Positions 827 to 24,460 of a stretch of 64,000 nucleotides of DNA are shown here, in pieces (position 1 is the stretch's first letter; every line of letters starts with the position of its first letter). This DNA comes from Chiloscyllium plagiosum (lineage: Eukaryota): NCBI RefSeq assembly GCF_004010195.1, contig NC_057712.1:35968446-36032445 (forward strand), in the 5' to 3' direction. The position numbers and the translations under genes are program-made. Under the pieces are notes generated by a model. That model was not told where the DNA came from, did no database searches, and saw only the letters and a list, made by a program, of their open reading frames with translations.

Positions 827-1312
827 CATCTCATCAGGCATTAGTCAGGCTTCAGCCTCTTGAACTCTGGAAATAACTTCTTGACTTGCTGTAAGCATAC
901 CTGTCCTGCCCTCTCTTTTTAGATTAAATTAGATTCCCTACAGTGTGGAAACAGGCCCTTCGGCCCAACAAGTCCACACCGACCCTCCGAAGAGCAACCC
1001 ACCCAGACCCATTTACCCCTGACTAATGTAACTAACACTACGGGCAATTTAGCATGGCCAATTCATCTAACCTGCACAACTTTGGACTGTGGGAGGAAAC
1101 TGGAGCACTTGGAGGAAACCCACGCAGACACAGGGTGAATGTGCAAACTCCACACAGCCAGTAACCCGAGCTGGGAATCGAACCGGGTCCCTGGCGCTGT
1201 GAGGCAGCAGTACTAACTACTGAGCCACCGTGCCTCCCCAGTGCTGCTTCATTACCCAGTGGGCATCCTGCCCCATGTATTGCTCACGAAGGTTATCTGA
1301 GGACTCTCCTGA
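827..1312 (-). pseudogene. Candidate exon of unidentified decayed gene, split by a SINE
   Basis: Acceptor ctgtacag|; SGESSDNLREQYMGQDAHWVMKQHW [SINE] KERAGQVCLQQVKKLFPEFKRLKPD*CLMR; donor |gtgaga. Confidence 0.4.
921..1238 (-). mobile_element. HE1-like tRNA-derived SINE
   Basis: tRNA-like head (ggcacggtggctcagt...ggttcgattcc), central domain 'gggtttcctccaagtgctccagtttcctcccacagtccaaa', LINE-like tail ending in (aatct)n. Confidence 0.93.
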
Positions 1313-1390
1313 CTGTACAGTGAATTGATTTTTTAAAATAAATTGTTCTGAAAAGTCCACGTTACAGAGGTGTGTGCTCTCAAATTAGGA

Positions 1391-1690
1391 TGTTAACTCT
1401 GGTTACGTAAACACTTGAGACTGAGTTCTTGCTGGGAACAAAGATCAGAAGATTTATTCACATAGGAACCAAATGCATTCGAACTTTATCACAGACATTA
1501 TCATTGGGACAGTCTGGACTCATGCTGGATATGAACTGACCCCCTCCTGATAGGTTACAAAGGGCAGCAGCAGCCATTCTGGTGGAGCTGATACCTTTCT
1601 ACAAGAATATCGCACAGTACAATGCTACAAGGAAGGTAACACTTAAAGGAACATGCCTGTCTGATTACAGATACACGCAACCTTACAACA
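1391..1690 (-). mobile_element. Probable 3' LTR of a Gypsy-like retrotransposon
   Basis: TGT...ACA termini, minus-strand AATAAA near 1453, purine-rich tract (aggataaatgggcga) immediately before the LTR on the minus strand. Confidence 0.6.
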
Positions 1691-1964
1691 TCGCCCATTT
1701 ATCCTGTCAAGCATAGGATTTCTCCCAACAGAAAACATGTGCAAGGATACAGATTAAAAACGACAGAGCCGTATTTGCACACACGTTGCCTTTCTAGTTT
1801 AGGATGGAGTTTCAGTGTATTTATAACATGACTTGTACAGTTCTCAGGGTGTGGTTACGGAATTTCACTCTGTTGTGTGTGTTGTCTACTGTTTTAGATT
1901 GGTATGGACTCCTCAGCAGGGACGTGTTCTATTCTATGTTGTTGCTGGGCCTGTTAGTTAACTG

Positions 1965-2096
1965 GTAGGCGAAAGTGAGGACTGCAGATGCTGGAGATTA
2001 GAGTCAAGATTAGAGTGGGTGCTGGAAAAGCCACAGCAGGTCAGGCAGCATCCGAGCAGCAGGAAAATTGACATTTCGGGCCAAAGCCCTTCATCA
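1965..2096 (-). mobile_element. Penelope-type mini-element with hammerhead-like core
   Basis: Minus strand ctgatga-a-gggc-tttg-gccc-gaaa-tgtc; imperfect TSD ggcctgtt(a)gttawctg at 1948-1964 and 2097-2112. Confidence 0.75.
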
Positions 2097-3330
2097 GGCC
2101 TGTTGTTATCTGATATTTATGCAATGTTTTGAGAGTCTGAATCATCATTGTGGATTACCTGAGGATTATCTGAATGTCTCTTCAAATCTATCCTATTACA
2201 TGACCACTGCAGTCTCAATGATCAATTTGTCATGAACACAATTTTTCAGTGTCCTTCCTTACGGCCGAATGGTGGTTATCCTCTACTTTGTGATCCCGGA
2301 AAACCTGAGGCAATTGTTGACATGCTCCGTGACAGTATTCCTTCATCATTCTCTCCATTTTGAGCAAAGAACCATCTGCTTCTGGTTGGTTCAGAAGGAT
2401 ATGAGAGGGAAGAAAAGCACGGACAGTGTCTCAGGTGAAGGTGCATTGCCCTGAGGTGGTACATATACTTTCAATACGACAATCCCAAAGTCTTGACAAG
2501 TTGCCTTAAACTTCATGAGAGTTGGTTTAACTGTGTGTATTGTATCCTCTGCTAGACCATTTGATTGTGTATGTTGCAGAGTTGGTGTGATATTTTGAAC
2601 TCCCTGTTTCCTGCACATGGCTCCGAACGGTTACTGGTATCTTACACGATCTGCTGTGAGATGCAAGACATGCTAAAGATAGCGGTGAACGTGTCAGCAA
2701 CTGTGGTTCTGGTGGTATTCCTGACTTAAGTGACAAGATGAAATTTAGTAAAGTTATATAGTCCTGGCGCCCCTGGCCACAGCTTTGATGTCAGTTCGGA
2801 CTTGGAGCACAGCTCCGAATTGCGAATCCGCGCAGTGTAAGTGGTTCTGGGATTGACAAAGCAGACATACTTCACACAGTTGTATCAGCGATCAATGTCT
2901 TTCTCAGATTTGTGTGTGAACTTCAGGCTTCCCTCTGCTCTCTGACCGACGTAGAGATAGTTCAACATGTCCTGATGCACCGTTTTGGGATCAGCCCTTG
3001 CTTACCCTTGAAAATGACCTCACATGATAGCGCTAATGTTTCTGGATGCGGCTACTATGAATGTACTTATTCTGGAACCTAGTGAATGTGCTCAGGCTTA
3101 CTGCTGGTGAAGGTGTGTTTCAGATGGAGCATGCTGAATTTGTCCTGATTGGTTACCATCAACGTGGATGTGATCAACATGAAAGTTCTCATCCATCTCT
3201 GATTCAATGGCATCGACCTGGAAATCTATTGGGAGGTCTTTGTGATTGGCTGGATTTGGGAGCTGACTCCGATATCTGAAGTTACCATCATGGATTTCGG
3301 TTCGTAGTGGTCCTTCAAGCCAGAACCTTC

Positions 3331-3544
3331 GAGGAGAAAGTGAGGGCTGCAGATGCTGGCGATCAGAGCTGAAAATGTGTTGCTGGAAAAGCGCAGCAGG
3401 TCAGGCAGCATCCAAGGAACAGGAGAATCGACGTTTCGGGCAGGAATTCTGATTCCTGAAGAAGGGCTCAGGCCCGAAACGTTGATTCTCCTGCTCCTTG
3501 GATGCTGCCTGACCTGCTGCGCTTTTCCAGCAACACATTTTCAG
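3331..3544. mobile_element. Palindromic Penelope-type mini-element with hammerhead-like core
   Basis: ~75-bp inverted arms around ctgaaga-a-gggc-tcag-gccc-gaaa-cgtt; TSD cttcaagccrgaacct at 3313-3328 and 3545-3560. Confidence 0.8.
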
Positions 3545-3935
3545 CTTCAAGCCGGAACCTCAGGCTTTGATGAGAAGATGTCGGAAGATGTAGCGGCTTC
3601 CTGCAGATCATCTCCAGAGGCTTGTGGTCAGTCTGGACTACAAACAGGGCCACATGTGGAATCACTGCATTCTGAACATTAGTGCCAGAGTTTCCCTTTT
3701 GTCCTGCCAATACTCACTGTTTACTGCTGCCATATTTCATTCTAACACTGTGGTATTGTTAGATCTCCGTTCCCTTGGAAAATACCCATCTCCAGTTTAA
3801 AGTTTCAAGGAGCTATGAAGTACTTTGGGTTTGCGCCATGTGGATGTTAGATTTTGAATGTGAGACAAATGTCATTTTGCCAGTTGGAGGTGACATTGAA
3901 GGGTTGTCATGGTAAATATGAATTTAAATCTTAAC

Positions 3936-4094
3936 CTGGAGATCCTGTGATTTGCTTCTTCTGCAGTTCAGGAGCCTTTTTAAAAGCGGTGATAAAACAG
4001 GTGAAGCAGAGAGCAACTTTACAGACCCTTCGGCCAGGCTTGTGCTGCAAACCCTTTTCAACACGAGCAGAAGCTGGGGGAGGTGAGGCTGCTG
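3936..4094 (-). pseudogene. Candidate exon (phase 0-0, 53 codons) of unidentified decayed gene
   Basis: Acceptor ttccctcgatccccttgcag|, open frame QQPHLPQLLLVLKRVCSTSLAEGSVKLLSASPVLSPLLKRLLNCRRSKSQDLQ, donor cag|gttaag. Confidence 0.4.
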
Positions 4095-4250
4095 CTGCAA
4101 GGGGATCGAGGGAAACCAGTCACCATGCAGTCAATCCCATGTTTGAAGGTGCCCAGAAACAGGATTGGGAGCAGCTGATCTTGCTAGAGTACAGGGCTAG
4201 CCCCAGTAACCGTGAGAACAATCCTTGATAATTCTGACAAATTCAAATGA

Positions 4251-4527
4251 GTGGCATGGTGGCTAGCACTGCTATTTCACAGCACCAGGGACCTGCGTTC
4301 GATTCCAGCCTCGGGCGACTGCCTGTGTGGAGTTTGCACATTCTCCCAGTGTTTCTCCGGGTGCTCCGGTTTCCTCCCACAGTCCAAAGATGTGCAGGTC
4401 AGGTGGATTAGCCATGGGAAATGAAGGGATAGGGTTTGGCAGATGGGTCTGGCTGGGATGCTGTTCAGAGGGGCAGTATGGATCTAATGGGCTGAATGGC
4501 CTGCTTCCACGCTGTGGGGATTCTATG
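4251..4527 (+). mobile_element. HE1-like SINE (decayed)
   Basis: Same head, core and tail as other copies. Confidence 0.88.
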
Positions 4528-4979
4528 AAGCAAAGTGTTCTACCGTTAAGTGCTGGGAGGGTGAATTGGCCTAGAAGGAACACCATGGAGAATATACAAA
4601 GCCTCTTAACAGCCAGGGTCAAAGGCCAAAACAAGTGGCAGATCACTCATGGGAAAAGCCTCACCGAGACCTTACAGAATGAGCACGGTGAGATTCTCAC
4701 TCAGAACATTTCAACGTTAGTCATGGGGGGCTTGACCATTTCAAGAGGCATTACTGTGTGTAAAAGTCTAAAACGTCCGGAAAAATATACAACGCTGACA
4801 CAGAGAGGCTGATGAATGCCCATCGTTCGTGGACAGACAATGAAGGGGGAGGCTACTTGGCAAAACAAGTTTTCATAATTGATGGACTGGGGTATTTTTG
4901 GAAAAGTATGCTCCAGAGGACATTTCACTGAAGGGGAAGACAGACCAGGAATCCAAGCTATGCTTCATGGAACCACTGT

Positions 4980-5480
4980 TAGAGTGTTTATATTTAAACC
5001 CCGGCTTTAAAACATCATAGTCATTGAGCAGCAACTCTAAGAACGATCTGCAAGTCACTTGTCACTCAAGTATTAAGCCTGGATGACAAGGGCAGTAATG
5101 GCTCTCTCTGAATGCCATTGATGACTGGAGGGCACATTGTGCCAAAGAAAATCTTCCCATCAAAATAACTTCCTGTTAGGTCATTGCCCAACTCATCCCA
5201 TCAACTTTAATGAAGACTCTAAAAATGTGAAGATGCTTTTCCTGCCAGCCAACATAATGTAATTGACATAGTTCACGGATCGGGGACCAATGGTAATGTT
5301 CAAGGCTTAATTGCTCCACTGTACCTACCACCAGCTCATCAAAGGAACAGGAGGTGAGAATGAGTGTCTTATAACATCCTCAAGGACACTGACAATGTTA
5401 CTGACTTGGGGGATGAAGGTCATGTTGCTGCATCTGACCATTGTAGAGCCAAGAAGAATCTCAAGAAGACTAACCCTGAG
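4980..5480 (+). mobile_element. Tigger/pogo transposase relic (DDE_1 domain)
   Basis: Frameshifted motifs 'KAWMTR', 'HCPTHP', 'NVKMLFLPAN', 'DRGPMVMFKA' resemble the pogo consensus KAWMT / LDNAPGHP / FLPPNTTS.QP.DQG.I..FK. Confidence 0.75.
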
Positions 5481-5642
5481 GTTCAACATGGATCTTTGAC
5501 CTTGGTGAGGGAGGCAGGTTTAGATGAAGTGGTGAGGCCGATGATGTAGAATTGGTTGCATCCCCTGGAGATTAATTTTCCAAGACTTGATGAAGTTTGA
5601 GAGTCAACAAGCTGAAGAGGACGACAGGACTGAGATATCAGC

Positions 5643-5903
5643 TTCGCACGTCCTCCCCGTGTCTGAGTGGGTTTCCTCCGGGTGCTCCGGTTTCCTCCCA
5701 CAGTCCACAGATGTTCAGGTTAGGTGAATTGGCCATGCTAAATTGCCCATAGTGTGCAAGGATGTATAGGTTAGGTGCATTAGTCAGGGGTAAATATCGG
5801 ATAATTGGGTTGGGGATTGGGTCGGGGTGGGTTACTCTTCGGAGTGTGGACTTGTTGGGCTGGAGGACCTGTTTTCACACTGTAGTGATTCGATGATTCT
5901 ATG
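5643..5903 (+). mobile_element. HE1-like SINE, 5'-truncated
   Basis: Core 'gggtttcctccgggtgctccggtttcctcccacagtcc' and tail. Confidence 0.88.
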
Positions 5904-5904
5904 A

Positions 5905-6800
5905 AAATATTGGAGGCTTGGTTAGCAAGTTTGTGGATGACACCAAAATTGGGGATAAAATGGACAGTGAAGAAGGTTATCTAAGTGTACAATGGGATCT
6001 TGATCAGTGGCCAAAGGTATGACAGATGGAATTTATTTGAGATAAATGCTAGGTGTTGCATTTTTGTAAGGCAGGACTTACACAGTTAATGGAAGGATCC
6101 TGGAGAGTGCTGTCGAACAGAGAGACTTGGGTGCAGGTACATAGCTCCTTGAAAGTGGCATCACAGGATGGTGAGGAAGGTGTTTGGCACAACTGCCTTC
6201 ATAGATCTGAGCACTGAATACAGAAATTGGGATGTTAGTTACGACTATAGTGAGGCTATATTTGGAATCCTGCATACAGTTCTAGTCATTCTGCTTTAGG
6301 GAGGAGGTTATTAAGCTGGAAAGGAAACAAAAATAATTTCCAAGGATGTTTCTGAGATTGGATGGTTTGAATTATAAGGACGGGCTGGGACTTCTTTCCC
6401 TGGAGTGTCGGAGGCTCGGGGTGACCTCAGAGAGATTAATAAAATCATGAGGGGCAGAAATAAGGTGAATAGCCGAGGTATTTTCCCCAGGGTAGGGAAA
6501 TCCAAAACTGGAGGGCATTGGTTTAAGGTGAGAGGAGGAAGCTTTAAAAGAGACATAAGGGACAACATTTTCACACTAAGGATGGTATGTATGTGGAGCA
6601 TGCAGCCAGAGGAAGTGGTAGAGATGGGTACAATTATAACATTTAAAAGACATTTGGACAGGTACATGGATAGGAAAGGTTTAGAGGGATATGGGCTAAA
6701 TGCTGGGAAATGGGACCTGTTCAGTTTAGGAAACCTGGTTGATGTGCATGAGCTGGGCTGAAGGCTCCGGTTCTATGCTGTATGACTCTATGACTCTGTA
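5905..6800 (+). mobile_element. CR1/HER1-like LINE 3' fragment
   Basis: RT motif FVDDTKIG through tail 'atgctgtatgactctatgactct'. Confidence 0.9.
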
Positions 6801-7038
6801 ATAGAGCACTATGCTAGAGTAGGTAGAGAGATCAACATTACCATTAACAGTCCCCTGGAAAAGCAAGAAAACTGTCAAACACTTTGTGGGTAAATGTTTC
6901 AAGACTGTTGGTAAGCTTGGAGTGTCATGTTCTCTTTGAATAATTGGAACTCTGCTACAAGGTGAGTAGCTTGCCAATCCATGTTGAGAGTTTTATTCTC
7001 CACTGTGGCCTGTATTTTATTTGATTGCTGTACCTTCA

Positions 7039-7256
7039 AAGTTGGTTCCGATATAACGCGATAGTCCCGTTCTCGAGTGATCCATGTTAAAAGAAAATCG
7101 TGTAATAGCAGTACCATCTAAACCAACAGAGCCAGAATCACATTATAGCCAATACAGGTTAGGACGGTTCACGTTCTACAAATAACGCTCTAAATTCTTC
7201 AATCGCATTAAAGCCAATTCGCATTGAAGCAACATGCTTTGTAGCAGAACCGACTG
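7039..7256. mobile_element. Tigger-type MITE
   Basis: Imperfect TIRs aagttggttccgatataacgc / gctttgtagcagaaccgactg followed by TA. Confidence 0.7.
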
Positions 7257-7268
7257 TACTATACTCAC

Positions 7269-7641
7269 AGAAATTTCTGCAGTTTTGTTACTGACCTGTC
7301 CCAAGTTTAAAATTTCCCTTACAGCTGTGGCTGCAGTTTCTTTTGTTGTCACTGTGCTGGGAGAGATACTGTTGTAACTAGATACAGTGCAGTAAGTCTA
7401 ATGGTGGGTTGACCGTGGGTTGCAATGTCTTTATTTTTGGAGCCAGCCTCAGGGACCAGGCATCTGATTTCTCTTTTGATCTTTTGCAACGTATCAACAT
7501 AATAACAAATGAGAAACTCTATGAGGGCAGATTGTCTAGTCATGTCCCTCTGCAATCCACAATTAGAAGCTTTCAGCACCTTGACCTTCTTGTAAGTCAC
7601 GTGATCTACAGCAGCCATGTTAAAGATCCAGCAAAGTCAAA
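7269..7641 (-). pseudogene. Candidate exon (phase 1 start) of unidentified decayed gene
   Basis: Strong acceptor ctctctttttgttttaaag|; F*LCWIFNMAAVDHVTYKKVKVLKASNCGLQRDMTRQSALIEFLICYYVDTLQKIKREIRCL..., frameshift near 7395, then ...VTTKETAATAVREILNLGQ; donors |gtcagt (7296) or |gtgagt (7269). Confidence 0.5.
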
Positions 7642-7699
7642 CTTTAAAACAAAAAGAGAGTACAGTTTTATCAATTTGTAATATATTTCATATCCCCAT

Positions 7700-8285
7700 G
7701 GACATCTATTAGATACTCCCTTACTGGAGATGGTCATAGCCTGGCATTGGTGTGGTGTCAGTGCAGCTTAAAATTAACAGGCCAAACCTGGATATTGTCC
7801 AGATCTTGTTGCATTTGAACACGGACTGCTTCAGTATCTGATGAGTCACGAGTGGTGCTGAACATTGTGTAATCATCAGCAAACATCCCCACTTCTGACC
7901 TTATGATGAAGGGGAGCTCATTGAGGAAGCAGCTGAAGCTGGTTGGGCCTGGGACACTACCCTGAGGAACTCCTGCAGAGACGTCCTGGAGCTGAGATGA
8001 CTGACCTCCAACAACCTCAACCATCTTCCTATGTGCCAGGTATGACTCCAACCAGCAGAGAGTTTTCCCCCACCTCCTCCCACCCCCCTCCCCGGATTCC
8101 CATTGATTCCAGTTTTGCTGGGACTCCTCGATGCCACACTCGGGTCGAATGCAGCCTCAATGTCCAGGGCTGCCACTCTCCCCTACCCTCTGGAATTCAG
8201 CTCCATGTTTGAACCAAGGCTGTAATGAGGTCAGGGGTTGGCCCTGGTGGAACCCAAACCAGGCATCACTGAGCAGGTTATTGGT
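7700..8285 (-). mobile_element. LINE RT fragment (second CR1/L2-clade family)
   Basis: AGVPQGSVPGP...MFADDYT and ALDIEAAFD reverse transcriptase motifs. Confidence 0.9.
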
Positions 8286-8477
8286 TACAGAAGTGAGTTC
8301 ATGTGATGAATCTGCCAGGAATTTGTCCAATCAGAGTTGCCAACTTTTGACAGTGACACACTTGGGACCAGGTATTGGTGGAGGGGCAGATAGTCAGTGG
8401 ACCATTTGAACCAATAAGATACCAGTTCTGGGAGTAGGCAATACTGGGCACGAGCCAATCAGTTGCTTGTTACTCAC

Positions 8478-8507
8478 ACAGCACCAGTTTGGTTTCGATT
8501 ATCTTCC
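8478..8507 (-). pseudogene. Candidate 30-bp exon (phase 1-1)
   Basis: Acceptor tttaatatag|, (G)KIIETKLVL, donor |gtgagt. Confidence 0.45.
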
Positions 8508-8711
8508 CTATATTAAATGGATCAAACTAATAGTACATTTCAAGTTTCTGTCAGTAACACTGTCCTTCCAAAATAGCCACTTGGTTTCCTAATCACAGCA
8601 GAACTGTCCCAGGGTACTTCATAGGGGCCTTTTCTTAAAAAGTCACTAGAGTAAATGACCCTCAGCCATTAAAGGTAAGCTTTATAGTATCTTTAGTGAG
8701 GATGACAGGTA

Positions 8712-8972
8712 GATTAGATTAGATTCCCTACAGCATGGACACAGGCCCTTCAGCCCAACAAGTCCACACTGACCCTCCAAAGAGTAACCCACCCAGACCC
8801 ATTTCCTCCTGACTAATGCATCTAACACTATGGTCAATTTATGCACATCTTTGGACTGTGGGAGGAAACCCACACAGACAATATACAAGCTCCACTCAGA
8901 CAGTTGCCTGAGGCTGGAATTGAACCTGGGACTGTGGAGCAGCAGTGCTAACCACTGAGCCACCGTGCTGCC
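8712..8972 (-). mobile_element. HE1-like SINE
   Basis: Head ggcagcacggtggctcagtggttagcactgctgc; tail (aatct)n. Confidence 0.9.
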
Positions 8973-9530
8973 CAGGTAGAGAATTGGAGAGATTTAGAAA
9001 GAGTGTTCCAGAGCTTAAGGCCTCAGCAACTGTATATATGATGGAAGGAACAAAATTGAGACTCAGCATTAGAATTGGAGGCACAGAGATCTTAGAGCAA
9101 TGTAGGGGCTAGACAAGATCATAAAGATGGGAGGAAGGGGGTGACAAGCAGTGGAAAATTTCAAATGAGAACGTAGATTTTAAAATTGCCTCGGAAGAAA
9201 CAAACAGTCAAATTTGTGAATGACACAAACTAGTCTGATTTGTTGTGTATGCTTCCAAATGGAACTCCTGGAAGCCCTTACTTTAATTTCCAAGTTTTGC
9301 AGATCTTTTCCTGATGCTTCCCTCAGGAGCCAGTGTAGGTCAGCAAGCACAAAAGGAATGAGTGGATGGTCCTGTTTGAATTAGGATACGGTCAACAAGA
9401 TTTAACATGAGCCTGTGTTTACAGAGGATAGATAGAATGCGGGAGGTTGTAGTGAGTGAAATGTAGGGGTGCCAGGTCATGTCAAAGCAGGAACAGTTCT
9501 CAGGATAGCCACCAGATGGAGCCTTAACAC

Positions 9531-9594
9531 CATAGGTTGATGTTGCGTTGGGGTTATACAGAGTCCAGGAAACACAAGTCTCATCAATGGCTAA
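9531..9594 (-). pseudogene. Candidate exon (phase 0-1)
   Basis: Strong acceptor ttgtttccctgtgtccacag|, LAIDETCVSWTLYNPNATSTY(G); weak donor |gtgtta. Confidence 0.45.
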
Positions 9595-9989
9595 CTGTGG
9601 ACACAGGGAAACAAGTAAATTACACAACCAAAAAATAGGACAGGACTAATATTCAAGCAGATTTGGAGGAATTTTTAGGAGTTTTAAATTCACTCCTCAT
9701 TATTTGTAACCCTTTACAGTAACTAATCAGGGTAATGAGGAACCATAATTAATAACAGGAAGTTGTCCCCCATCTTGTGACATGATGTGGAAGACGAGAT
9801 TCCAAAGTTATCCATTGAGGCTGAGAGATATTGTAACGTGTCACTGATTTATATTCCAACACCACACTATCTCTGATCCTCTGTTCTTTGCAATTATCGA
9901 ATCATACAGCACAGGAGAAAGTTACTCATCCCACTATGCTGTGTCTGTGCTTTGGCTGAGCAATGCAATTAATCCACATACACATACAG

Positions 9990-11230
9990 GACGGACCTGG
10001 GCAATTTTCTACATTGTCAGGTAGCTGCCAGTGTTGTAACTGTACTGGAACAGCTTGGCAAGGGGAACAGCAAGTTCTGGAGCACAAGTCTCTATAGTAC
10101 TATTGCCAGAATGTTTTCAGGGCCCATAGTCTTTACAGTGTCCTGTGTCTCCAGCCTTTTCATGGAGAGAATCAAATTGGCTGAAGATTGGTATCTGTGA
10201 TGCTGGGGACCACTGGAGGAGGCCGAGATGGATCATTCACTCAGCACTTCTGGCTGATGATTGCAGTGAAAACTTCAGCCTTATCTTTTGCACTGATGTG
10301 CTGGGCTCTTCCATCATGGAGGATGGGGATACTTATGGAACCTCCTTCTCCAGTGATTTGTTTATTAATCCACCACCACTCAGCACTGGATTAGGCAGGA
10401 CTGCAGAGCTTACATCTGACCCTCTGGTGGTTGGATTGCTTAGCTCTGTTACATGCTGCTTCTGGTGTTTTGCATGCGAGTCCTGTTTGGTGGCTTCACC
10501 AGGTTGACACCTCATCTTCAGGTATGCCTGATGTGCTCCTGACATGCCTGCACGCTTCATTAAGTCAGGGTTGATATGCCGGGTCGTGAGGTTACAGATT
10601 GTGCTGGAGTACATTTCTGCTGCTGTTGCTGGCCCACAGTGCCTCATGGATGCCTAGTCTTGAGTTGTTTGATCTGTTTGAAGTCTGTCCCATTTGTTTA
10701 CTGCACAATATGGTGGTGGGTATTCTCAATGACAAGGTGGGACTTCGTCTCCACAAGGACTGTGCGGTGGTCACTCTTACCAATACTATCATGGACAGAT
10801 GCATCTGCAGGCAGCAGATCAGTGAGAATGAGGCCAAATATGTTTTTCTCTCAGCACTATATGAATAGGAAGGGTTTGGAGGGATATGGGCCGGGCGCTG
10901 GCAGGTGGGACTAGATTGGGTTGGGATATCTGATTGGCATGGACGGGTTGGACTGAAGGGTCTGTTTCCATGCTGTACATCTCTGTGACTCTATGACGTG
11001 CTGCAGATCCAGTCCAGCAGCTATGTCCTCTAGGACTCCACCAGCTCAATCAGTAGCAGTGCGTGGTGATGGACACTGAAATCCCCCACCCAGAATATAT
11101 TTTGTTTCTTTGCCATCTTCAGTGCTCCCTCCAAGCGTTGTTCAACATGGAGGACCAATTCATCAGCCGAAGGAAGGAAGGTATCAGCAGGAGCCTTCTT
11201 TTCCCATGTTTGAACTGACGAGATGTTATT
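9990..11230 (-). mobile_element. LINE ORF2 fragment (second family) with nested CR1 3' end (+, 10855-10995)
   Basis: Endonuclease/pre-RT like decayed frames; nested copy carries the HER1-like tail. Confidence 0.8.
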
Positions 11231-11699
11231 GGGTCCAATAATTTATTTTATGGAATATTAATCCAACAATATAATCTCCTTGCTACAGTTCCCTTATCCT
11301 TTCCATTTATCTCGCACCTATCATGACTTCAGGATGTCCCTAAGAGCTTCCTACCCAGTGCAGTGTAAACACAGCGGTAAAGTAGACAAGTGCTATGTCA
11401 CAGGACCCATTTCCTCGAGATCTTTGTTACAAACCTCTGTAAACCTGTTCCTCATGCCCTTGTGAACTGTCAGTCTGTTAAGAATAACTACCTGACCCTG
11501 GAGGGGGTGAGGCCAGCTTTACAAGGAGGAAAGGATTTGCGAATGATCTGCCTCTCACGAATGAACTGAAAATGAATTGAGATGATGAATTGATGAGTGT
11601 AGTGGTTGTTGAATGCTAGAACAAGCCCTCTTTGCACCTGACAGCACTGGGATGGACAAAATGCTGCATCTGGGACCTTAAACAGGCTGTTTACTGTAC

Positions 11700-11811
11700 C
11701 TGGAAATACATCGCAGTTCAACCCAGGGACTTCAGAAAGGAAACCTGCTGTTTCTGGAAGGGCCACCATTCTAGGATTTGCCGCAACTTGGAACAGACGT
11801 CCTCTGATCTC
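11700..11811 (-). pseudogene. Candidate exon (phase 2-0)
   Basis: Acceptor gttaccctgttgcag|, RSEDVCSKLRQILEWWPFQKQQVSFLKSLG*TAMYFQ, donor cag|gtacag. A stop-free alternative frame EIRGRLFQVAANP... also exists. Confidence 0.5.
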
Positions 11812-11919
11812 CTGCAACAGGGTAACATTAAAAGGTAGCTGACGCATTGTTAGGGAAAAGACAAACTTGAAAACAGCAAGAAGTGATGAAGGATCTCAGT
11901 TAGAAGTCAATGACACCAG

Positions 11920-12750
11920 GAAACATAGGAGCAGAAAAAGGCCATTCAGCCCTTTGGCTCTGGTCTGTTATTCAGTGAGAACATGGCTGACCTGATAGTC
12001 AACTCAGGTTTCCTGGCTTTTCTCCATAACCCTTGATGCCCTCACTGATTAAAAATCTGTTGATCCCAGACCTGAATATTTTTAATGACCCAGCCTCGTT
12101 AGCCCTCTGTGATAGACAATTCCACAGGTTTACTAACATCTGAGACAGAAGAAAACCCGCCTCATCTTTGTCTTCGCTGGGTGATCTCTTCCTCTGAGAT
12201 GATACCCTCTGGTGCTAGACTCTTGCACAAGGAGAAACAACCTCTCCCCAGCTACCCCGTCAAGTCCCATGAGGACATTTCAATAAGGCTGTCTCTCATT
12301 CTTCTACATCCAATGGGTACAGGCTCAACCGACTCAACCTCTCCTCATTAGACAATCCCTCCATCCCCAAGGTCAGCCCGAGTGAACCTTCTCTGGACTG
12401 CCTTCAATGCCAGTATATTCTGCCTTTGACAAGGAGCATAAAAATGTTCACAATATTTCTGGTAATTTCTGAATCATTGAGGAGAAAGTGAGCACTGCAG
12501 ATGCTGGAGTTCAGAGTCGAGAGTGTGGCGCTGGAAAAGCACAGCAGGTTGTGCAGCATCCGAGGAGCAGGAGAATTGATGTTTCGGGCATAACCTCTTC
12601 ATCAGGAATTGAAGGGCTCTTGCCTGAAACGTCAACACCACACTCTCAACAATTTCTGAATCATACCTTGTATAGTCTTAGCAAAAGTTTTACACCCTAT
12701 TTTTACACTCTTCCTGCCAAAGTGCATAATCTCACATGTTCCCAGGTTGA
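11920..12750 (-). mobile_element. CR1-like LINE 3' fragment
   Basis: Tail 'ggctgaatggcctttttctgctcctatgtttc' on minus strand; CEIMHFGRK motif. Confidence 0.85.
12478..12650. mobile_element. Penelope-type mini-element with hammerhead-like core
   Basis: Minus ctgatga-a-gagg-ttat-gccc-gaaa-catc plus a partial inverted copy; exact 14-bp TSD aatttctgaatcat at 12464-12477 and 12651-12664. Confidence 0.8.
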
Positions 12751-13402
12751 GATGGTCAAGTTCCCAGGACTGATGATAACCAACATTCTGTCCTGGCCTT
12801 CCCTTAGGGGCAACAGTTAAGAAGGCACAACAATGCCTGTTCTTCCTCAGGATGCTATGGAAATTCAGCAGGTCCATAAGGGCCCTCACCAACATCTACA
12901 GCTGCACCTTAGAAAGCATACTATCCGGGTGCATCACGGCCTGGTATGGCAACTGCTCTGCCCAGGACAGTAAGGTGTGCATAGCCTGGACCATCACAGA
13001 AGCCAACCTCCCATCCTCGGACTCCACTTACACGTCTTATTGCCGCAGAAAGACTGCCAACATCATTAAAGACCCTTCCCAACCCGATAATGTTCTCCTA
13101 CAACCTCTTCCATAAGGCAGAAGATAGAGAAGCTTGAACACACGCACTAACAGGTTCAGGAACAGCTTCCTCCCTGCTGTTATAACACAGATGAACGGAC
13201 GCTCTGACTTCAAATAACGTTGATCTTGCCTCACGCACCTCCTGTGCATTGTAACCTGTCTGCCTCACTCTGTCTAACTACCCTGTGATCTCTATCTGCG
13301 TGTTTGCCATGATCTGCCTGTACTACTCACAAAACAATGCTTTTCATTGTACTTAGGTATGTGTGACTACAATTAATCCAATCCAATCCAATCCAATCCA
13401 AT
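12750..13402 (+). mobile_element. Rex1/Babar-like LINE 3' end with (AATCC)n tail
   Basis: 'KKAQQCLFFLR...LTNIYSCTLESILSGCITAWYGNCSAQD' and 'RTNRFRNSFLPAVI' are typical of Rex1-clade C-termini. Confidence 0.85.
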
Positions 13403-13890
13403 GCTATATTCCATCTGCCCAGGTTTTGCCCATTTGTCTATATCCCTTTGCAATTATTTTTGTGTCATCATACAAACTTGGCTAAACAATATTCGCTGTC
13501 CCCATCCAAGTCATTAATACATATTGTAAATAATTGTGGCCCCAGCAGTGATCCCTGTGGCACATCATTGCCATCCTGAAAGTGCCCCCCTTATCTCAAA
13601 TCTCTGTCTTCTATTAGTTAGCCAATTCCCTATCCATTTTAATGTACCACCTCCAGCACAGTGGGCACTTACCTTATTAAATAGCCTACGTTGTGGGACC
13701 TTATCAACACCTTCTGAAAATCCAAATATATTACATCCACTTCTTCCCCCTTTATCTATTCCCTTTCCCCTGCTCTGCAAAGAATTACAGCAAATTTCTC
13801 AATCATGATTTCCCCTTCATGAAGCCATGCTGTCTTTGCCAGATGGTATTGTGTATTTTAAAAGGTCTGCCATTACATACTTTCTAATAA
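13403..13890 (-). mobile_element. CR1-like LINE RT fragment
   Basis: VDKVPQRRL...KWIGNWLTNRRQR motif. Confidence 0.85.
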
Positions 13891-13992
13891 TTCTTATCCT
13901 TTTCTTCATCCTCAGTGTAATATGTCTTTGCTACGAGGCATGAACAATGAGTTGCTAAGGAGCAGAACTGGTCGACGGTGAGGTTCATTCAC

Positions 13993-14176
13993 CGCACCTC
14001 AAAGGGATTCCTGTTGTCCTATTGGTCCCGGTGATGCTCGTCACCACACAATTGGCCAATCATGTCCACAATGCCGAATGTGTTAACATAATTGATCCCC
14101 CATGGCATGGGCCTAATGATTCCAGCACTTGTCATGCTTTGAGTGAAGATCTCTTTCATAATCTCTGGGTGGCTAT
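13993..14176 (-). pseudogene. Candidate exon (phase 1-2)
   Basis: Acceptor cactgctccccag|, SHPEIMKEIFTQSMTSAGIIRPMPWGINYVNTFGIVDMIGQLCGDEHHRDQ*DNRNPFEV(R), donor gcg|gtgaat. Confidence 0.5.
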
Positions 14177-14384
14177 CTGGGGAGCAGTGTGACGTATGTA
14201 AGGTATTGAAGAAAAGAGAAAGCACAAAGACCAGCATTTATATTGTGATTTTGACAACCTCAGGGCTCGCCAAAGTGCCTTGCAATTAAGCATGTACTTT
14301 TAAAGAGTGGGTGCTATTGTAATGATGGATCACCACCAACAAGGCAGTACGTTTTGAACAACCTCTATCTCTCCTCTCATGGAG

Positions 14385-14720
14385 AAGGTCATGGGTTCAA
14401 GTCCCACTCCAGATGCTGGAGCAGACAGTCCAGACTGACACTGCCAGTGCAGTACTGAGGGAGTGCTGCAGTGCCAGAGGTGCCACCTTTCAGATGAGGC
14501 ATTAAAACAAGGCTCAGGTAAATGTCCAGGGATCTCACGGCACTATCTTGAAGCGGAGCAGCCATCAAGCCTCTAGACCGATTACCTAGTTACTATCACT
14601 GCGCTGCCTGTGGGATCTTGCTGTGCACCACTGTGCGGCTGAATTTCGTACATTACAATGGCGACCATGGTTCACAGGTACCTCGGTGAATGAGGAGCAC
14701 CAGGACCTCCTGAAGTCACG
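14385..14720 (+). mobile_element. Deu-domain SINE (SacSINE1/AmnSINE-like)
   Basis: B-box 'gggttcaagtccc' and Deu core 'cagtactgagggagtgctgca...gaggtgccacctttcagatgag'. Confidence 0.8.
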
Positions 14721-16454
14721 AGAGGTCAACAGAAGATGGAGAGTCCGCCCCCCCCCCCCTCTGGCTTTTCCCTCTGGCTATGAAATGTTCAGGTCTTGGC
14801 AAAGTGGGGATTGCCAGATCGAACTCAACAGTGCACTTGGGTGAGATGCATTGTTGCTGATGGTCATCCCTGTCCTCAGAATGAGGTTTCTTTGAAGCTG
14901 TAGAGGACAGTATTCAGTGGGTTAATAATAGAGGACTATGCAATGTGTTGATTTCTTTTATTGGCAAGTGGTCCCATCGAAGGCCATTGAGCTGTAGAAA
15001 GAAACCTATTGAAATACAGGGCCTCAGCAGAGAGCTGCTGCTTGGACGATCTCTGGAAAGCACACAGTCAGGCAAACATTCGTTTCCAAGACAACCCACT
15101 CTTGGTAACTCACAAACCTGGCATCTTTCTGTCAGGTTTGAGAAGACTGGGCTTCTCCACCGAGAGGGTTAATTCCACGTTGGCTGCGTGACGGCAGGAG
15201 AAAGCTAGTTTATGTCAGCAACTTTCCACTGATGGAGCTGCGGTCTGCCTAATCCTGGGGAAATGTGAGGGCTGCGGAGATTAGGAGTGAGCAAGGATGG
15301 CTGGAGGCACTGTTTCAGGCCCAGGTGGGCTTGGCTGGGAGGTATGGCGCTAGGACCGTGAGGAGGCTGAGCCAAGCTCCTTCGTTCCCCTAGTGGGGTG
15401 ATTTATTTCAGTGGGCAATATGCTAATTGGCCGACAGCCTGGCAGAGACTGTGCGCATTAGGTAATGTCTACAAAGTCTGCCATCTGTGAACAGATGGAA
15501 ACAACAATGGCTGAGGAACTTTTCCTGTCAGCAAATAGTTTCCTTCAGGGAAAGTCCTCGCTTTGAAAGTTTGGATGGTGAATTGCGGTTTTGATATCAA
15601 GATGTTCCATGAAGCCAGGAGGAATCTGCAACAGTACAGCAGCACTCCATTATAATTGACAGCTTGCCAGGATTTCTGATCAATTCCATGGAAACAAAAT
15701 CCATTGCTAATTCCAAACAAAAGGGATGTGTGTTTATACATTTATACACAGGCGCTCTTGCAGCATGCAATCGTCTACCTCTGAGCCAGACGCTAAGGGT
15801 GCAATGTTGAAACAGGCCAATTTACAAATTATATTTATGTTCACTCCTTCCTCTTTTGTTTCTTTATGATGTTTCCCCTTGGAATATAGCTACAAAACTC
15901 ACCTCAGCCACTCCCTGTGGTCGTCAGTCTCACTCTCTCCAGGGAGACGTTACTCCATCTTTCAATTCTCTGTTCAATTTATTGATAAGACCTTAAGAAA
16001 TAGGAACAGGTGTAGGCCATTCGGCCCCTCGAACCTCTTCGGCCATTCATTCGGATCTGACATTGCTCACATTCACTTTCCTGCCCTTTCCCTGGAACTC
16101 TTGATTCACTGTTGATAGATATCTCAGTCTTGATACCCACATTCGGTCTGTGGCTCTGAGTTTCGGAGTGGCGCCAAAGTGCAGCCACTTTCTCTATCTC
16201 TTTCCTGCTGGCACTTCAGTAATGGTAAACCCCTCTGCCTGGTCACCCATCTACATTCACTCAATCAGAGGAACGAGTCACAGCTTCCCTGATAGTTACC
16301 ATCTCTCAGCTCTTGTTCTGTGTGTATTAAAATCCTTCATAGTTAGACACCGACTTCTCCTTTCCATCTTTGGCACGTCATGGGGAAGGCTGGCACTCAG
16401 TGCCCACCCCTGGCTCGTGCTGAGTCTTCCTAATGAGCCTTTGTGAAGAGCCAC

Positions 16455-16760
16455 AGTCTTTTTCCCAGATAGGGCATAGGTTTAAGGTGAGAGGGGAAGG
16501 ATATAAAGGGGACCCAAGGGGCAACGTTTTCACCCAGAGGGTGGTACGTGTATGGAATGAGCTGCCAGAGGAAGTGCTGGAGGCTGGTACAATTACAGCA
16601 TTTAAAAGGCATCTGGATGGGTATATGAACAGGAAGGGTTTAGAGGGATATGGGCCAAGTGCTGGCAAATGGGACTAGATTAGGTTGGTATATCTGGTCG
16701 GCGTGGATGAGTTGGACTGAAGGGTCTGTTTCCATGCTGTACACCTCTGTAACTATGACT
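16455..16760 (+). mobile_element. CR1/HER1-like LINE 3' end
   Basis: GHRFKVRGE...FTQRVVRVWNELPEEV motif and tail. Confidence 0.92.
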
Positions 16761-17084
16761 CCAACCGACAGATTCCTTGGGAGGGCAGTTTAAGACCCAA
16801 CTGCTTTGGCCTGGTGTTGGACTCACATGTAAAGTCAGGCCAGATCAGGTAGAACGGCAGATTCCCTGCGGTGAATCAGACAAGATTTGATAACTATCCA
16901 ATACCTTGACATCACTTCTCTTGAGACTATACTCTTTTGGAATCTCAACTGCTTTTTAAATTCTCAAACTGTCATTGTATCCTCTGAACTCACAATCAGT
17001 CGATTATTACAGATCATATAAGCGAGCACATTACTGTTTTGCTTCATCATTGCGGGTTTGTCAGCACATATGGTAACCCATGTG

Positions 17085-17350
17085 GGTATAAAAAGCTCCA
17101 GTAAACAGCAAGGCGATAATGACCTGATCATCAGTTTTATTTTTGCAAGGTCAGTTAAATGAGGAAAATTGTCCAGGATTCTGAGGAAAATGCTCATGTT
17201 TTTCTACAAATAGTGCTGGGGGATCTTTTGCACGCACATGAAAGAGCAGACAGGGCCACAGCTCAGTGTTGCATCTGAGAGACTGTACCTCTGACAGTGC
17301 AGCACTGCCTCTGTACAGACACTGAGGGAGCATTGCTCCAGCACTGTGCT
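17085..17350 (-). mobile_element. Deu-domain SINE
   Basis: Reverse complement of the Deu core (gtgctgcactgtcagaggtacagtctctcagatg). Confidence 0.75.
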
Positions 17351-17630
17351 CTCCAACCCAAGATGACGATGGAATGATAACACTCCAAAGGAAATTTGGG
17401 TAAGGAATTTTTTTTTTGAAATGCAGGGCCGTGAGGAAGGAGCAGGGGATTGGGACTAATTGGAGAATCCTTTTTAAGAGCTCACAAGACCATTGTAGAG
17501 TGAAAGGCTTCACTCTGTACTCCACGGTTCTGTGATTGTTTAATGGTCAAGTTAACAGCTCTGCCTCATGAATCAGGAGGAAAGCTCATTACCAAAATCA
17601 AAAGGTTTAGGGGGATGTAAAAGGTGTGAC

Positions 17631-17737
17631 CTTGTGGTAGATGATTTGATCTTGAAAATGGGTCCGAGCTCTTTACAAAACCAGCCTCCAGCTCCGTTTG
17701 ATGGGATGAGGCCCAACATCCTGGATTTCCAATGCTG
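17631..17737 (-). pseudogene. Candidate exon (phase 1-0)
   Basis: Acceptor ttcattcactctccag|, ALEIQDVGPHPIKRSWRLVL*RARTHFQDQIIYHK, weak donor aag|gtcaca. Confidence 0.45.
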
Positions 17738-17869
17738 CTGGAGAGTGAATGAACTGAGGCTAGGCCAGGCCATTGTGACAGGCAGGTACCTGGCTCCCCT
17801 ACATTGAGTGAAGCCCCGACCTCCAACCTCTTGGGGGAATTGTCATGACTGGATGTCCAACTTACTTGG

Positions 17870-18915
17870 AGTTCAATGCAGTTAAATGTGAGGTGACTCA
17901 CTTTGGGAAGAATAACAGGAAGGCAGAGTACTGGGTCAATGAAAAGATTCTTGGTAATGTGGATGTGTAGAGGGATCTTGGAGTCCATGTACTTAGATCC
18001 CTGAAAGTTTCCACCCAGGTTGGTAGTGCTGTTAAGAAGGCAAACGGTGTGTTAGGTTTTAGTGGTAGAGGGATTGAGTTCCAGAGCCATAATGTCATGC
18101 TACAACTATACAAAACGCTAGTGTGGCTGCACTTGGAATATTGTGTACAGTTCTGGTCGGCCTATTGTAGGAAGGATGCGGAAGCATTGGAACAGGTGCA
18201 GAGGAGATTTACCAGGGTATTGCCTGGTCCGGAGGGAAGGTCTTATGAGGAAAGGCTGAGAAACTAGACAGATGTCAGAGGCAGGTTCTTTACGCAGAGA
18301 GTGATAAGGGTGTGGAATACCCTACCTGCCAATGTAGTCAACTCAGCCACATTAGGGAGATTTAAATAATCCTTGGATAAGCACATGGATGATGATGGGA
18401 TAGTGTAGGGGGACTTTGTAATCCTCTACAAGGTCACTCCTCAGCCTCTGACACTTCAGGGAAAACAGCCCCAGTCTGTTCAGCCTCTCCCTGTAGCTCA
18501 AATCCTCCAACCCTGGCAACATCCTTGTAAATCTTTTCTGAACCTTTTCAAGTTTAACAACATCTTTCCTATAGCAGGGAGACCAGAATTGAATGCAATA
18601 TTCCAAAAGTGGCCTAACCAATGTCCTGCACAGCTGTAACAGGTCGTCCCAACTCCTGTACTCAATGCATTGACCAATAAAGGCAAACTTACCAAACGCC
18701 TTCTTCACTATCCTATCTACCTGCGACTCCACTTTCAAGGAGCTATGAACCTGCATTCCACAGTCTCTTTGTTCAGCGACACTCCCTAGGAGTGTATTAC
18801 CATTAAGTGTATAAGTCCTATCCTGATTTGCCCTGCCAAAATGTAGCTCCTCACATTTAGCTTGATTAAACTTCATCTGCCACACTTGACCCATTGACCC
18901 ATCTGATCAAGGTCC
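17870..18915. mobile_element. Two CR1-like LINE fragments in opposite orientation (+ 17870-18410; - 18411-18915)
   Basis: ORFs 18049..18267(+) and 18352..18894(-) both encode the L..HLEYCVQFWS / RPLLEYCIQFWSP motif. Confidence 0.9.
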
Positions 18916-18926
18916 TGCTTGGCACA

Positions 18927-19030
18927 ATCCAGGCTGATTGGTTATTATCATCACATGATCCAGACTAACTGGTCAGTCTTTATCAGGTGATGCAAGCTGA
19001 TTGGTCAGTTATCATCATGTGATCCAGGCT
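18927..19030. repeat. ~32-bp tandem repeat, about 3 copies
   Basis: atccaggctgattggt...atcatcacatg / atccagactaactggtcag...gtg / atgcaagctgattggtcag...gtg / atccaggctg. Confidence 0.7.
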
Positions 19031-19131
19031 GCATCCATGTGGCTCGGCTTCGTTGGATGTCCAATGATGGACCTAGACACAGAATCCAGCATGCAGCCAG
19101 CTCAGACTGTGAGCGAGCTCACTCACTATTC

Positions 19132-19257
19132 GGTAAAAACAATGACTGCAGATGCTGGAAACTAGATTCTGGATCAGTGGTGCTGGAAAAGCACAGCAGT
19201 TCAGGCAGCATCTGAGGACCCGGGAAATCGAAGTTTCAGGCAAAAGCTCTTCATCAT
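19132..19257 (-). mobile_element. Penelope-type mini-element with hammerhead-like core
   Basis: Minus tgatga-a-gagc-tttt-gcct-gaaa-cttc; TSD tcactattc. Confidence 0.7.
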
Positions 19258-19269
19258 TCACTATTCCCC

Positions 19270-20035
19270 TTATCAACACTCCAGCCTACACCAAATAAAG
19301 CCACAAGTTGATCAGTTAATATACACGTCACATAACTGTCAGACAATGACCATCTTCAAATATTAGACAATCTAACCACTTCTTGACATTCAAAAGTGTT
19401 ACCATCACTGAATCTTGCCCTGTCAAAGTTGGGAATTATCATTGATCAGAAACCTAACTGGACTCACCACACACATATAAAGGCTACAAGAGACTAGGAA
19501 TACTGCGGTGAGTAATTCACTTCTTGCCTCCCCAAAGCCTATCCACCATCTACAAGGCACAAGTCCCCACTCACCTGGATGGGTGCTCCAACACTCAAGA
19601 AGCTTGACATCATCCAGGGCAAAGCAGCCCACTTGATCAACATTACATCTACAAGCATCCACCACCAACACTCAGCAGCAGCACTCAGCTACAAGATGTA
19701 CTAAAGAAATTCACAAAAGATCCACAGACAGCACCTTCCAAATGCAGGACCATCAAGAAGGACAAGGTCAGCAGTGACATGGGAACACCACCACCTTCAA
19801 GTTCCCCTCCAAGCCGCTCGTCATCCTGACTCGGAAATATATCATCGTTTTTCACTGTCGCTGGGTCAAAATCTGGGAATTCCCTCCTTAAGGGCATTGC
19901 TGGTGAACCCACAGCAGGTGAACTGCAGCAGTTCAAAAAAGGCAGCTCATCACTGCCTTTAGAAGGGTAGCTAGGGAGGATCAATAAAGGCTAGTCCAAT
20001 CAGCAATGCCCACATCCAACGAATGAATAAAGAAA
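19270..20035 (+). mobile_element. LINE 3' fragment (second family)
   Basis: LSTIYKAQV motif, WNSLP region, tail 'gaatgaataaag'. Confidence 0.8.
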
Positions 20036-20106
20036 TCCTGACAGGTTAAGAGGCTAATGGGGATAGGAGTTCATCACTTTGACGGGTCTCACATTGTCTA
20101 TCTCAC

Positions 20107-20157
20107 CCTCAACTCAAAGGATGAGCAGCTTCCCCTCTGGATTCACTGGTGTCCACA
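20107..20157 (-). pseudogene. Candidate 51-bp exon (phase 1-1)
   Basis: Acceptor gttaatatccag|, WTPVNPEGKLLIL*VE, donor gagg|gtgaga. Confidence 0.45.
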
Positions 20158-20170
20158 CTGGATATTAACA

Positions 20171-20890
20171 GCCTGTTCTGTCTCAGAGCCCGCTCCGTCT
20201 CTGGGCCTGTTCTATCACTGGGCCTGCTCCGTCTCTGGGCCTACTCCATCACTGGACCGGCTCCGTCTCTGGGCCTGCTCCATCTCCAGGCCTGCTCTGT
20301 CTCTGGGCCTGCTCCACCTCTGGGCCTGCTCCATTCCTGGGCCTGCTCCAGCTCTGGGTCTGCTCTGTCTTCAGGCCCGCTCCATTTCCGGGCCTGCTGT
20401 GTCTCCAGGTCTGCTCCATTCCTGGGCCTGCTCCATTCCTGGGCCTGCTCCAGCTCTGGGCCTGCTCCATTCCTGGGCCTGCTCCAGCTCTGGGCCTGCT
20501 CCATCTCTGGGCCTGCTCCAGCTCTGGGCCTGCTCCATCCCTGGGCCTGCTACATCTCTGGACCTGCTACATCTCTGGGACTGCTCTGTCTCCGGGTCTT
20601 CTCCTTCTTTGGGCTTGCTCCATCTCCAGGCCTGCTCTGTCTCTGGGCCTGCTGCATCTCTGGGTCTGCTGCATCTCTGGGTCTGCTCCTTCTCTGGGCC
20701 TGCTCCATCTCCGGGCCTGCTCCATCTCCAGGCCTGCTCCATCTCCAGGTCTGCTCTATGTTTGGGCCTGCTCTGTCTCCAGATCTGCTCCGTATCTGGG
20801 CCTGCTCCATCTCTGGGCTTGCTCTCTCTCCGAGCCTGCTCATCTTTGGGCCTGCTCCATGTCTGGGTCTGCTGCGTCTCCGGGCTGGTC
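20171..20890. repeat. 17-bp GC-rich minisatellite (ctgggcctgctccatct), about 42 units
   Basis: Directly visible; explains the overlapping 17-aa-periodic ORFs on both strands. Confidence 0.95.
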
Positions 20891-21127
20891 CAACCCCAGA
20901 TCTTGCCCAACTCCGGGTCTGATCTGAATCTTGGTCTGACATTGACCGCGCACATCTCATGGACTAGGTAACAGGTTATGGGATTAACTGAGGCACTCTG
21001 AGAGCCAATGCCCACTCTGGGACTGGATAACAGGGGATTATTCTGATTCTCACCCTGATTCTGGGCAGAGCCCCCTCTAGGACCTGATAGCAGGGTTATC
21101 TTGTCAGATGGTGCCTGATTTTGAGGG

Positions 21128-23960: not shown

Positions 23961-24460
23961 NNNNNNNNNNNNNNNNNNNNNNNNNNNNNNNNNNNNNNNN
24001 NNNNNNNNNNNNNNNNNNNNNNNNNNNNNNNNNNNNNNNNNNNNNNNNNNNNNNNNNNNNNNNNNNNNNNNNNNNNNNNNNNNNNNNNNNNNNNNNNNNN
24101 NNNNNNNNNNNNNNNNNNNNNNNNNNNNNNNNNNNNNNNNNNNNNNNNNNNNNNNNNNNNNNNNNNNNNNNNNNNNNNNNNNNNNNNNNNNNNNNNNNNN
24201 NNNNNNNNNNNNNNNNNNNNNNNNNNNNNNNNNNNNNNNNNNNNNNNNNNNNNNNNNNNNNNNNNNNNNNNNNNNNNNNNNNNNNNNNNNNNNNNNNNNN
24301 NNNNNNNNNNNNNNNNNNNNNNNNNNNNNNNNNNNNNNNNNNNNNNNNNNNNNNNNNNNNNNNNNNNNNNNNNNNNNNNNNNNNNNNNNNNNNNNNNNNN
24401 NNNNNNNNNNNNNNNNNNNNNNNNNNNNNNNNNNNNNNNNNNNNNNNNNNNNNNNNNNNN
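23961..24460. other. Assembly gap (500 N)
   Basis: Run of n; the round length suggests a scaffolding placeholder. Confidence 0.99.

Follow-up and report, generated by a model that had tools for sequence, protein, structure and literature searches.

In the genome of Chiloscyllium plagiosum, a window of 64,000 nucleotides (the whole stretch analysed here, G000:C3:35968446-36032445, within which all piece coordinates are counted) carries on its forward strand, from 29.4 kb onward, the 3′ exons of ARID4B together with RBM34 and TOMM20; here and below, gene names follow the corresponding human proteins unless a Pfam match is given. On the minus strand of the same window, ten short exon-like pieces follow one another in a chain that four stop codons interrupt (Table 1); we call this chain the relic. 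Judged from its sequence, the relic is probably a unitary pseudogene of a seventh, SMG1-leaning gene of the PI3K-related kinase (PIKK) type. The ten pieces would then be the 3′ end of a dead gene, coding for a PI3K-related kinase domain's C-lobe half with FATC after it. In PMC8021618 the PIKKs are described as a family of six members with a HEAT-FAT-kinase-FATC layout and a GDRHXXN motif, of which TRRAP is the inactive one.

Table 1 Pieces of the relic and bounding features, in window coordinates; PIKK regions are putative assignments.
Feature	Position	Strand	Description
Piece 1	20107..20157	-	51 nt, phase 1-1; TGA at 20116-20114; PIKK hinge strand
Piece 2	17631..17737	-	107 nt, phase 1-0; TAA at 17675-17673; best coding frame of six; single copy
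Piece 3	15562..15625	-	64 nt, phase 0-1; GC donor; without stop; links both chains in frame
Piece 4	13993..14176	-	184 nt, phase 1-2; TAG at 14021-14019; helix and catalytic-loop region; best coding frame of six
Piece 5	11700..11811	-	112 nt, phase 2-0; TGA at 11720-11718; activation-segment end (PF motif)
Piece 6	9531..9594	-	64 nt, phase 0-1; without stop; C-lobe helix, two possible registers
Piece 7	8478..8507	-	30 nt, phase 1-1; YDPL..W column block in global alignment
Candidate piece 8	7296..7351	-	56 nt, phase 1-0; replaces 7641-7269, restores frame into 4094
Piece 9	3936..4094	-	159 nt, phase 0-0; without stop; by position the helix before FATC, about 14 residues too long
Terminal piece	1253..1312	-	20 codons like FATC end (DNL...Y.G..A.W-V)
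Low-copy dispersed repeat	7416..7705	-	DNA similarity to five copies; runs across proposed 7641 acceptor; not part of gene
Scaffold join, 500 N	23961..24460	.	bounds the relic's scaffold piece; separates relic from ARID4B 3′ exons

Structurally, the coordinates given in an earlier, sequence-only reading of this DNA held up, with all ten of its pieces beginning after AG and nine ending at GT (the end of the piece at 15625 had been left open), and its peptides and stops read as written. Its phase chaining is sound over 20157-15625 and over 14176-8478. The stretch 7641-7269 is mostly dispersed repeat, found in 16 other genomic places, and not an exon. Two separate chains had been proposed; their pieces stand and their separateness does not, as a 64-nt version of the 15625 piece joins both in frame, making them probably one. 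The donor of that version, at 15562 (GC, phase 1), scored highest of 18 candidates and removes the stop from the piece (this donor scan and the unbiased chain search described below were scored with a different splice matrix from the shark-trained ones behind the other splice and chain scores). Candidate piece 8 was the top of 55 phase 1-0 candidates and was selected with the PIKK profile, hence it is not independent of the family assignment. The last exon, drawn at 1312-827, survives at its start, where the first 20 codons are FATC-like; 69% of it is repeat, with a short interspersed element (SINE) starting near 1235. The argument that most stops lie one C>T change from a sense codon is uninformative, TAA, TAG and TGA each being one such change from CAA, CAG and CGA. 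The final chain comprises 295 codons with four in-frame stops and no frameshift, and has AG or GT at 18 of its 19 splice sites; a search for further exons in the gap from 11700 to 9594 gave none that convinced.

Two of the stops were checked against other runs: the TAA of piece 2 is present in an identical contig of run X1, and the TAG of piece 4 is covered by a contig of run X2 with no difference there among those listed (2 of 3). A contig of run X2 also carries an 18-base insertion relative to the assembly at 13981, 12 bases into the intron that follows piece 4. For the pieces at 17737, 15625, 14176, 11811, 9594 and 4094 the same genome yielded no second copy, in a gap-rich assembly from which weak paralogues could escape, and those at 20157 and 8507 were checked against 864 kb only. 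Unitary pseudogenes of vertebrates are single-copy and intron-containing, keep a fixed syntenic position, carry several premature stops, and normally have an intact orthologue in other species. The relic has the disabling stops and no intact copy in its own gap-rich genome and, unlike the usual case, no intact orthologue was found in protein searches with single exons. On the RNA side, two presumed RNA contig runs over 13780-17860 gave unspliced pieces only, and no exon-exon joint was present there among the joints listed, which weighs neither way; about 2% of one single-cell run gave zero reads on the 14176 and 17737 exons and ~1x coverage at 15561-15697.

The family assignment comes from alignment to the kinase domains of the six shark PIKKs, rebuilt from the genome (TRRAP and PRKDC incompletely), and to a 12-sequence profile made of these six plus six non-vertebrate or unnamed ATR-type proteins of 120 listed. 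Aligned end to end with this profile, a 203-codon version of the chain reached z=4.7 (0/3000 shuffles and 0/1000 local shuffles), and against the six shark PIKKs alone z=3.2 (1.3 with laxer gaps), while 37 decoy proteins gave z of at most 2.5 on the PIKK profile. Over all its 295 codons the complete chain is collinear, end to end, with a PIKK kinase domain and its FATC tail (0/400 shuffles; 2/400 and 4/400 when piece 4 was fixed and the nine others shuffled), and its length fits the span of the PIKKs from hinge to C-terminus. Before any editing, the original pieces gave z=3.7-4.3 without the 7641 repeat and z=2.0 with it, and 60 decoy profiles on the z=3.7 version reached 2.3 at most. Most of the PIKK signal is carried by piece 4 (z=5.0, 1/500 shuffles), which ranked first of 2221 splice-bounded candidates in 864 kb. 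With piece 4 fixed as an anchor, p for the six flanking exons combined was 0.04-0.05 against three profiles (SMG1 alone: 0.19), and for the four longer ones 0.010-0.016 (SMG1 alone: 0.06). Taken one at a time, the anchored tests gave p=0.010-0.083 on three profiles for piece 3 (0.50 on SMG1 alone), 0.025-0.17 for piece 5, whose acceptor is strong, and 0.008-0.12 for piece 6, whose coding score is poor. Aligned alone, piece 1 (weak acceptor) reached no significance and piece 7 gave no PIKK signal, and piece 9, also low in coding score, was equalled by 1148/2000 shuffles. On the six-PIKK profile, pieces 2, 4, 5 and 6 aligned singly fall in the right order. At the level of residues, the TGA of piece 1 falls on the invariant hinge Trp column, and GDEH of piece 4 is in register with GDRH. 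The active-PIKK motif GDRHxxN is absent from the relic, which reads GDEHHRD there, so that G, D and H remain and R and N are replaced, and the column of the DFG-type Mg-binding Asp holds Glu, with Asp one residue later.

Because PIKKs end in FATC, the downstream region was searched for such an end. The last exon of the sequence-only reading, which had been chosen without any family in mind, ranked second of 492 downstream candidates on the profile, and its first 20 codons gave z=4.1 against the C-terminal profile (6/2000 shuffles). The terminal piece ends in W-V, followed by a TGA one base out of frame and the SINE just beyond; shark SMG1 and ATM end W-V-stop. The conserved FATC G-W reads G-Q in this piece, and PF02260 gives no match there. 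A second FATC-like stretch on the minus strand at 5237-5334 (LCQ..YVGW; 34/2000 shuffles), with a weak acceptor and no stop directly after it, may be a chance match or an alternative terminal exon.

Evolutionarily, the relic is 10-18% identical to each of the six standard PIKKs (ATM, ATR, mTOR, PRKDC, SMG1 and TRRAP), whose kinase and FATC exons all lie on other contigs and whose loci are the only places with FAT and SMG1-domain matches. The nearest is shark SMG1 (G000:C21:57.10-57.21 Mb), with 18% identity over 230 aligned residues, a gap-free register from G-D to E-V over the catalytic loop, a C-terminal W-V in common, and the similar segments YNVC/EDVC and VPFR/WPFQ. Unlike SMG1, the relic has no insertion between kinase and FATC, has other introns, reads GDEHHRD and carries four stops; no SMG1 N-terminal domain was found near it. 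With ATM, ATR, mTOR and DNA-PKcs it shares, as aligned, order and length from the hinge Trp to the C-terminal FATC at 10-16% identity, and one ATM intron matches the intron before piece 6 in one of its alternative registers. PMC8021618 and PMC8926402 give TRRAP/Tra1 as the only PIKK pseudokinase in print. TRRAP, present in this shark at C21:18.25-18.31 Mb, is as distant from the active PIKKs (16-24%) as the relic is (10-18%), and in both, on the PIKK reading of the relic, the catalytic motif is altered and the kinase runs directly into FATC. The two are 13% identical, and the relic differs in keeping the G-D-x-H that TRRAP lost and in being dead. At G000:C21:18.27 Mb the TRRAP locus lacks two kinase-domain exons beside a 500-N join, a sign of local misassembly.

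This degree of divergence can be set against simulated neutral decay. Letting SMG1 decay neutrally to about 22% identity produced about 9 stops per 203 codons and kept each splice dinucleotide with p=0.23, and the four observed stops fit about 0.15 substitutions per site in the same simulation. Few stops and intact splice sites thus suggest that the divergence arose mostly while the gene was alive. We posit that the gene, which would have lacked SMG1's long insertion, diverged under selection until it stood as far from the other PIKKs as TRRAP does, and that its product was probably a weak kinase or a TRRAP-like pseudokinase scaffold. The reading of GDRHxxN as GDEHHRD favours a weak or dead kinase, and part of the catalytic-motif change may postdate the death of the gene, an event that would be old enough for about 15% neutral change and would leave no protein encoded today.

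Several results weigh against a PIKK-like relic. The family was picked by eye, among several leads, after piece 4 had been viewed, and the tests that are independent of this choice give p of about 0.005-0.2. Among the same 2221 candidates an equally high best score was reached with 6/60 decoy profiles (20.1 with the reversed profile), the true exon order ranks only 552/5040 and 114/1500, and with the original bounds and the anchor fixed the count was 66-197/1000, so that the result leans on edited bounds. Local methods returned little (home-made hidden Markov models (HMMs) 0.9-4.8 bits, HHalign 0.3%, best pairwise comparison 25/1000), PF00454 has no significant match at the locus, and the 5334-5237 stretch scores as well as the terminal piece on one profile, illustrating how chance matches arise. 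Near the locus no N-lobe exon was found and no FAT exon matched, although exons this diverged would be missed; nor were upstream N-lobe, FAT or HEAT exons found on the scaffold piece that holds the relic. Homology searches were equally empty: a Pfam search of the pieces returned nothing, word searches, including one with the pooled words of five exon peptides (129 candidates, none scoring), found no homologue, and HMMER with a 60-residue exon over 1.84 billion representatives found two repeat proteins only and no relative. Single exons matched nothing in NCBIfam, PHROGs or PDB sequences, a single-sequence fold of piece 4 (pLDDT, the model's own confidence measure, 61) had no structural match, and a control search with ATR returned 702 proteins, vertebrate ones included. 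The homologue spanning two consecutive exons at database significance, on which the earlier proposal was to be judged, was not obtained in the searches run. The missing relative is the main weakness of the assignment: either orthologues are unannotated, lost or less than about 35-40% identical (by our own estimate), or the chain is not real.

Statistically, too, the chain fares poorly when the family is left aside. As a 7-exon chain it scores 28 bits, and in each of the 36 control strand-tiles the best chance chain scores higher (median 73); its 4-exon core is the top chain on its own strand with thresholds set to admit it, and is matched in 5/36 controls; an unbiased chain search did not recover it; and most of its splice sites rank in the lowest third against 42 real acceptors and 37 real donors. 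Under a codon model with 6053 shark kinase codons as its training set, the seven core pieces score 8.7 against -34 ± 14 for random frames (0/1000), pieces 2, 4 and 5, the three longest core exons, each come top of six frames, and base composition by codon position in the core pieces resembles that of real exons; these codon scores apply to pieces that an earlier reader had already selected. By splice and codon statistics alone the chain does not rise above chance, and its support comes from the family alignment. All this bears on the strongest competing explanation, namely that the pieces were strung together by eye from ordinary unique non-coding DNA and the remains of old transposons in the gene desert between TOMM20 and IRF2BP2, and that the PIKK likeness is a post hoc chance match. 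Such an explanation, which we consider unlikely though it deserves to be taken seriously, accommodates the control tiles, the low-ranking splice sites, the absence of a homologue, the exon that proved to be a repeat and the supposedly unique island at ~2200-3800 that is a retrotransposon relic. It does not account for a last exon, picked with no family in view, that matches FATC, for a donor selected on splice score alone that both joins the chains and improves the PIKK fit, or for a whole-chain z above all decoy profiles and all decoy proteins. Should chance nevertheless prove right, the case would stand as a caution: in the intergenic DNA of sharks, exons chained by eye on splice sites and phase do no better than chance.

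Alternatively, the core exons could be a real pseudogene of an unrelated protein, one evolving fast or specific to its lineage, a reading that we regard as improbable. The coding signal of pieces 2, 4 and 5 is independent of family and the PIKK signal comes mostly from one exon, both of which such a protein would allow, whereas the FATC-like end fits PIKKs only and the tests of two other families gave nothing. One of these, the piggyBac transposase (DDE_Tnp_1_7), was rejected at 301/1000 shuffles (z 0.25-0.5), with no PF13843 match at the locus; the other, the class I cyclic-nucleotide phosphodiesterase (PDEase_I, HD motif), offered a 12-residue look-alike only and no HMM score. Likenesses to RecQ, P450, sulfotransferase and PhyH were seen by eye only. 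Elsewhere in the genome, a multi-exon piggyBac-derived gene resembling PGBD5 lies at G000:C3:41.01-41.08 Mb, 5 Mb from the window, and long open piggyBac frames occur on C35 and C1. That the relic began long ago as a partial SMG1 (or ATM) duplicate and decayed neutrally from the start is highly improbable. SMG1 does come nearest among the six, with several short motifs and the W-V end in common, but no relic intron coincides with an SMG1 intron, the long insertion of SMG1, whose kinase and FATC exons lie ~45 kb apart, is absent, and neutral decay this far would wreck frame and splice sites.

Around the favoured PIKK-like pieces lies repeat-derived sequence of several kinds. The family of the 7416-7705 repeat, which matches no Pfam family, is ancient and low-copy, and two close copies on C46 share a long stretch of 74-83% similarity. 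At ~2200-3800 on the minus strand lie decayed pol remnants of a long terminal repeat (LTR) retrotransposon, with 59 other places at protein level and with RNase H and integrase-type motifs; a DNA search with 3560-4240 found no copy in the genome. Just upstream of piece 1, a GC-rich tandem array of ~20-nt units (20170-20968) gives spurious long open reading frames on both strands.

Genomically, the scaffold around the window is a series of round-length pieces with 500 N at each join. The whole relic sits on one such piece of 27,000 bases (-3039 to 23960), with the edge 3.8 kb upstream of the relic; no sequence continuity with the neighbouring pieces that would fix its orientation was found at the junctions. 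IRF2BP2 lies on the plus strand ~83 kb left of the window. With IRF2BP2 on one side of it and TOMM20/ARID4B on the other, the relic is probably situated in the TOMM20-IRF2BP2 interval, neighbouring scaffold pieces presumably having been flipped in place. The 5′ exons of ARID4B (RBB1NT) are on the minus strand ~150 kb past the window end, with GGPS1 on the plus strand head to head with them. The scaffold piece 24461-90744, with the ARID4B 3′ exons, RBM34 and TOMM20, is inverted relative to these 5′ exons, probably through an assembly orientation error, and the IRF2BP2 piece appears flipped as well. The large penultimate-region exon of the human ARID4B gene had no counterpart among the K/E/D-rich open reading frames in 464 kb around the window and may lie in a gap or on a misplaced scaffold piece. 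The last RBM34 exon (60529-60834) ends with a repeated lysine-rich tail. The relic had been described as antisense to ARID4B; with a 500-N join between them, and the 5′ exons on the opposite strand far beyond the window, that description is not supported. What we share with the sequence-only reading is its best explanation, a unitary pseudogene of a globular protein outside the ARID4B-RBM34-TOMM20 block, now with a proposed family and shorn of the repeat exon and of the C>T and antisense arguments.

In broader terms, and as a tentative possibility that we hold to be rather doubtful, jawed vertebrates may once have possessed seven PIKKs, the seventh being a compact relative of SMG1, the family's second pseudokinase, encoded between TOMM20 and IRF2BP2. 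Dead here, it would live on in other cartilaginous fishes or other vertebrates, where it has escaped annotation or recognition. Among the papers listed by our literature searches we found nothing on a gene in the TOMM20-IRF2BP2 interval or on a seventh vertebrate PIKK. The coordinates and exon phases of the relic can be used to seek a living orthologue. If the reading is true, a further lineage, albeit extinct in this shark, would alter the history of a family whose members govern DNA-damage signalling, growth and mRNA surveillance.

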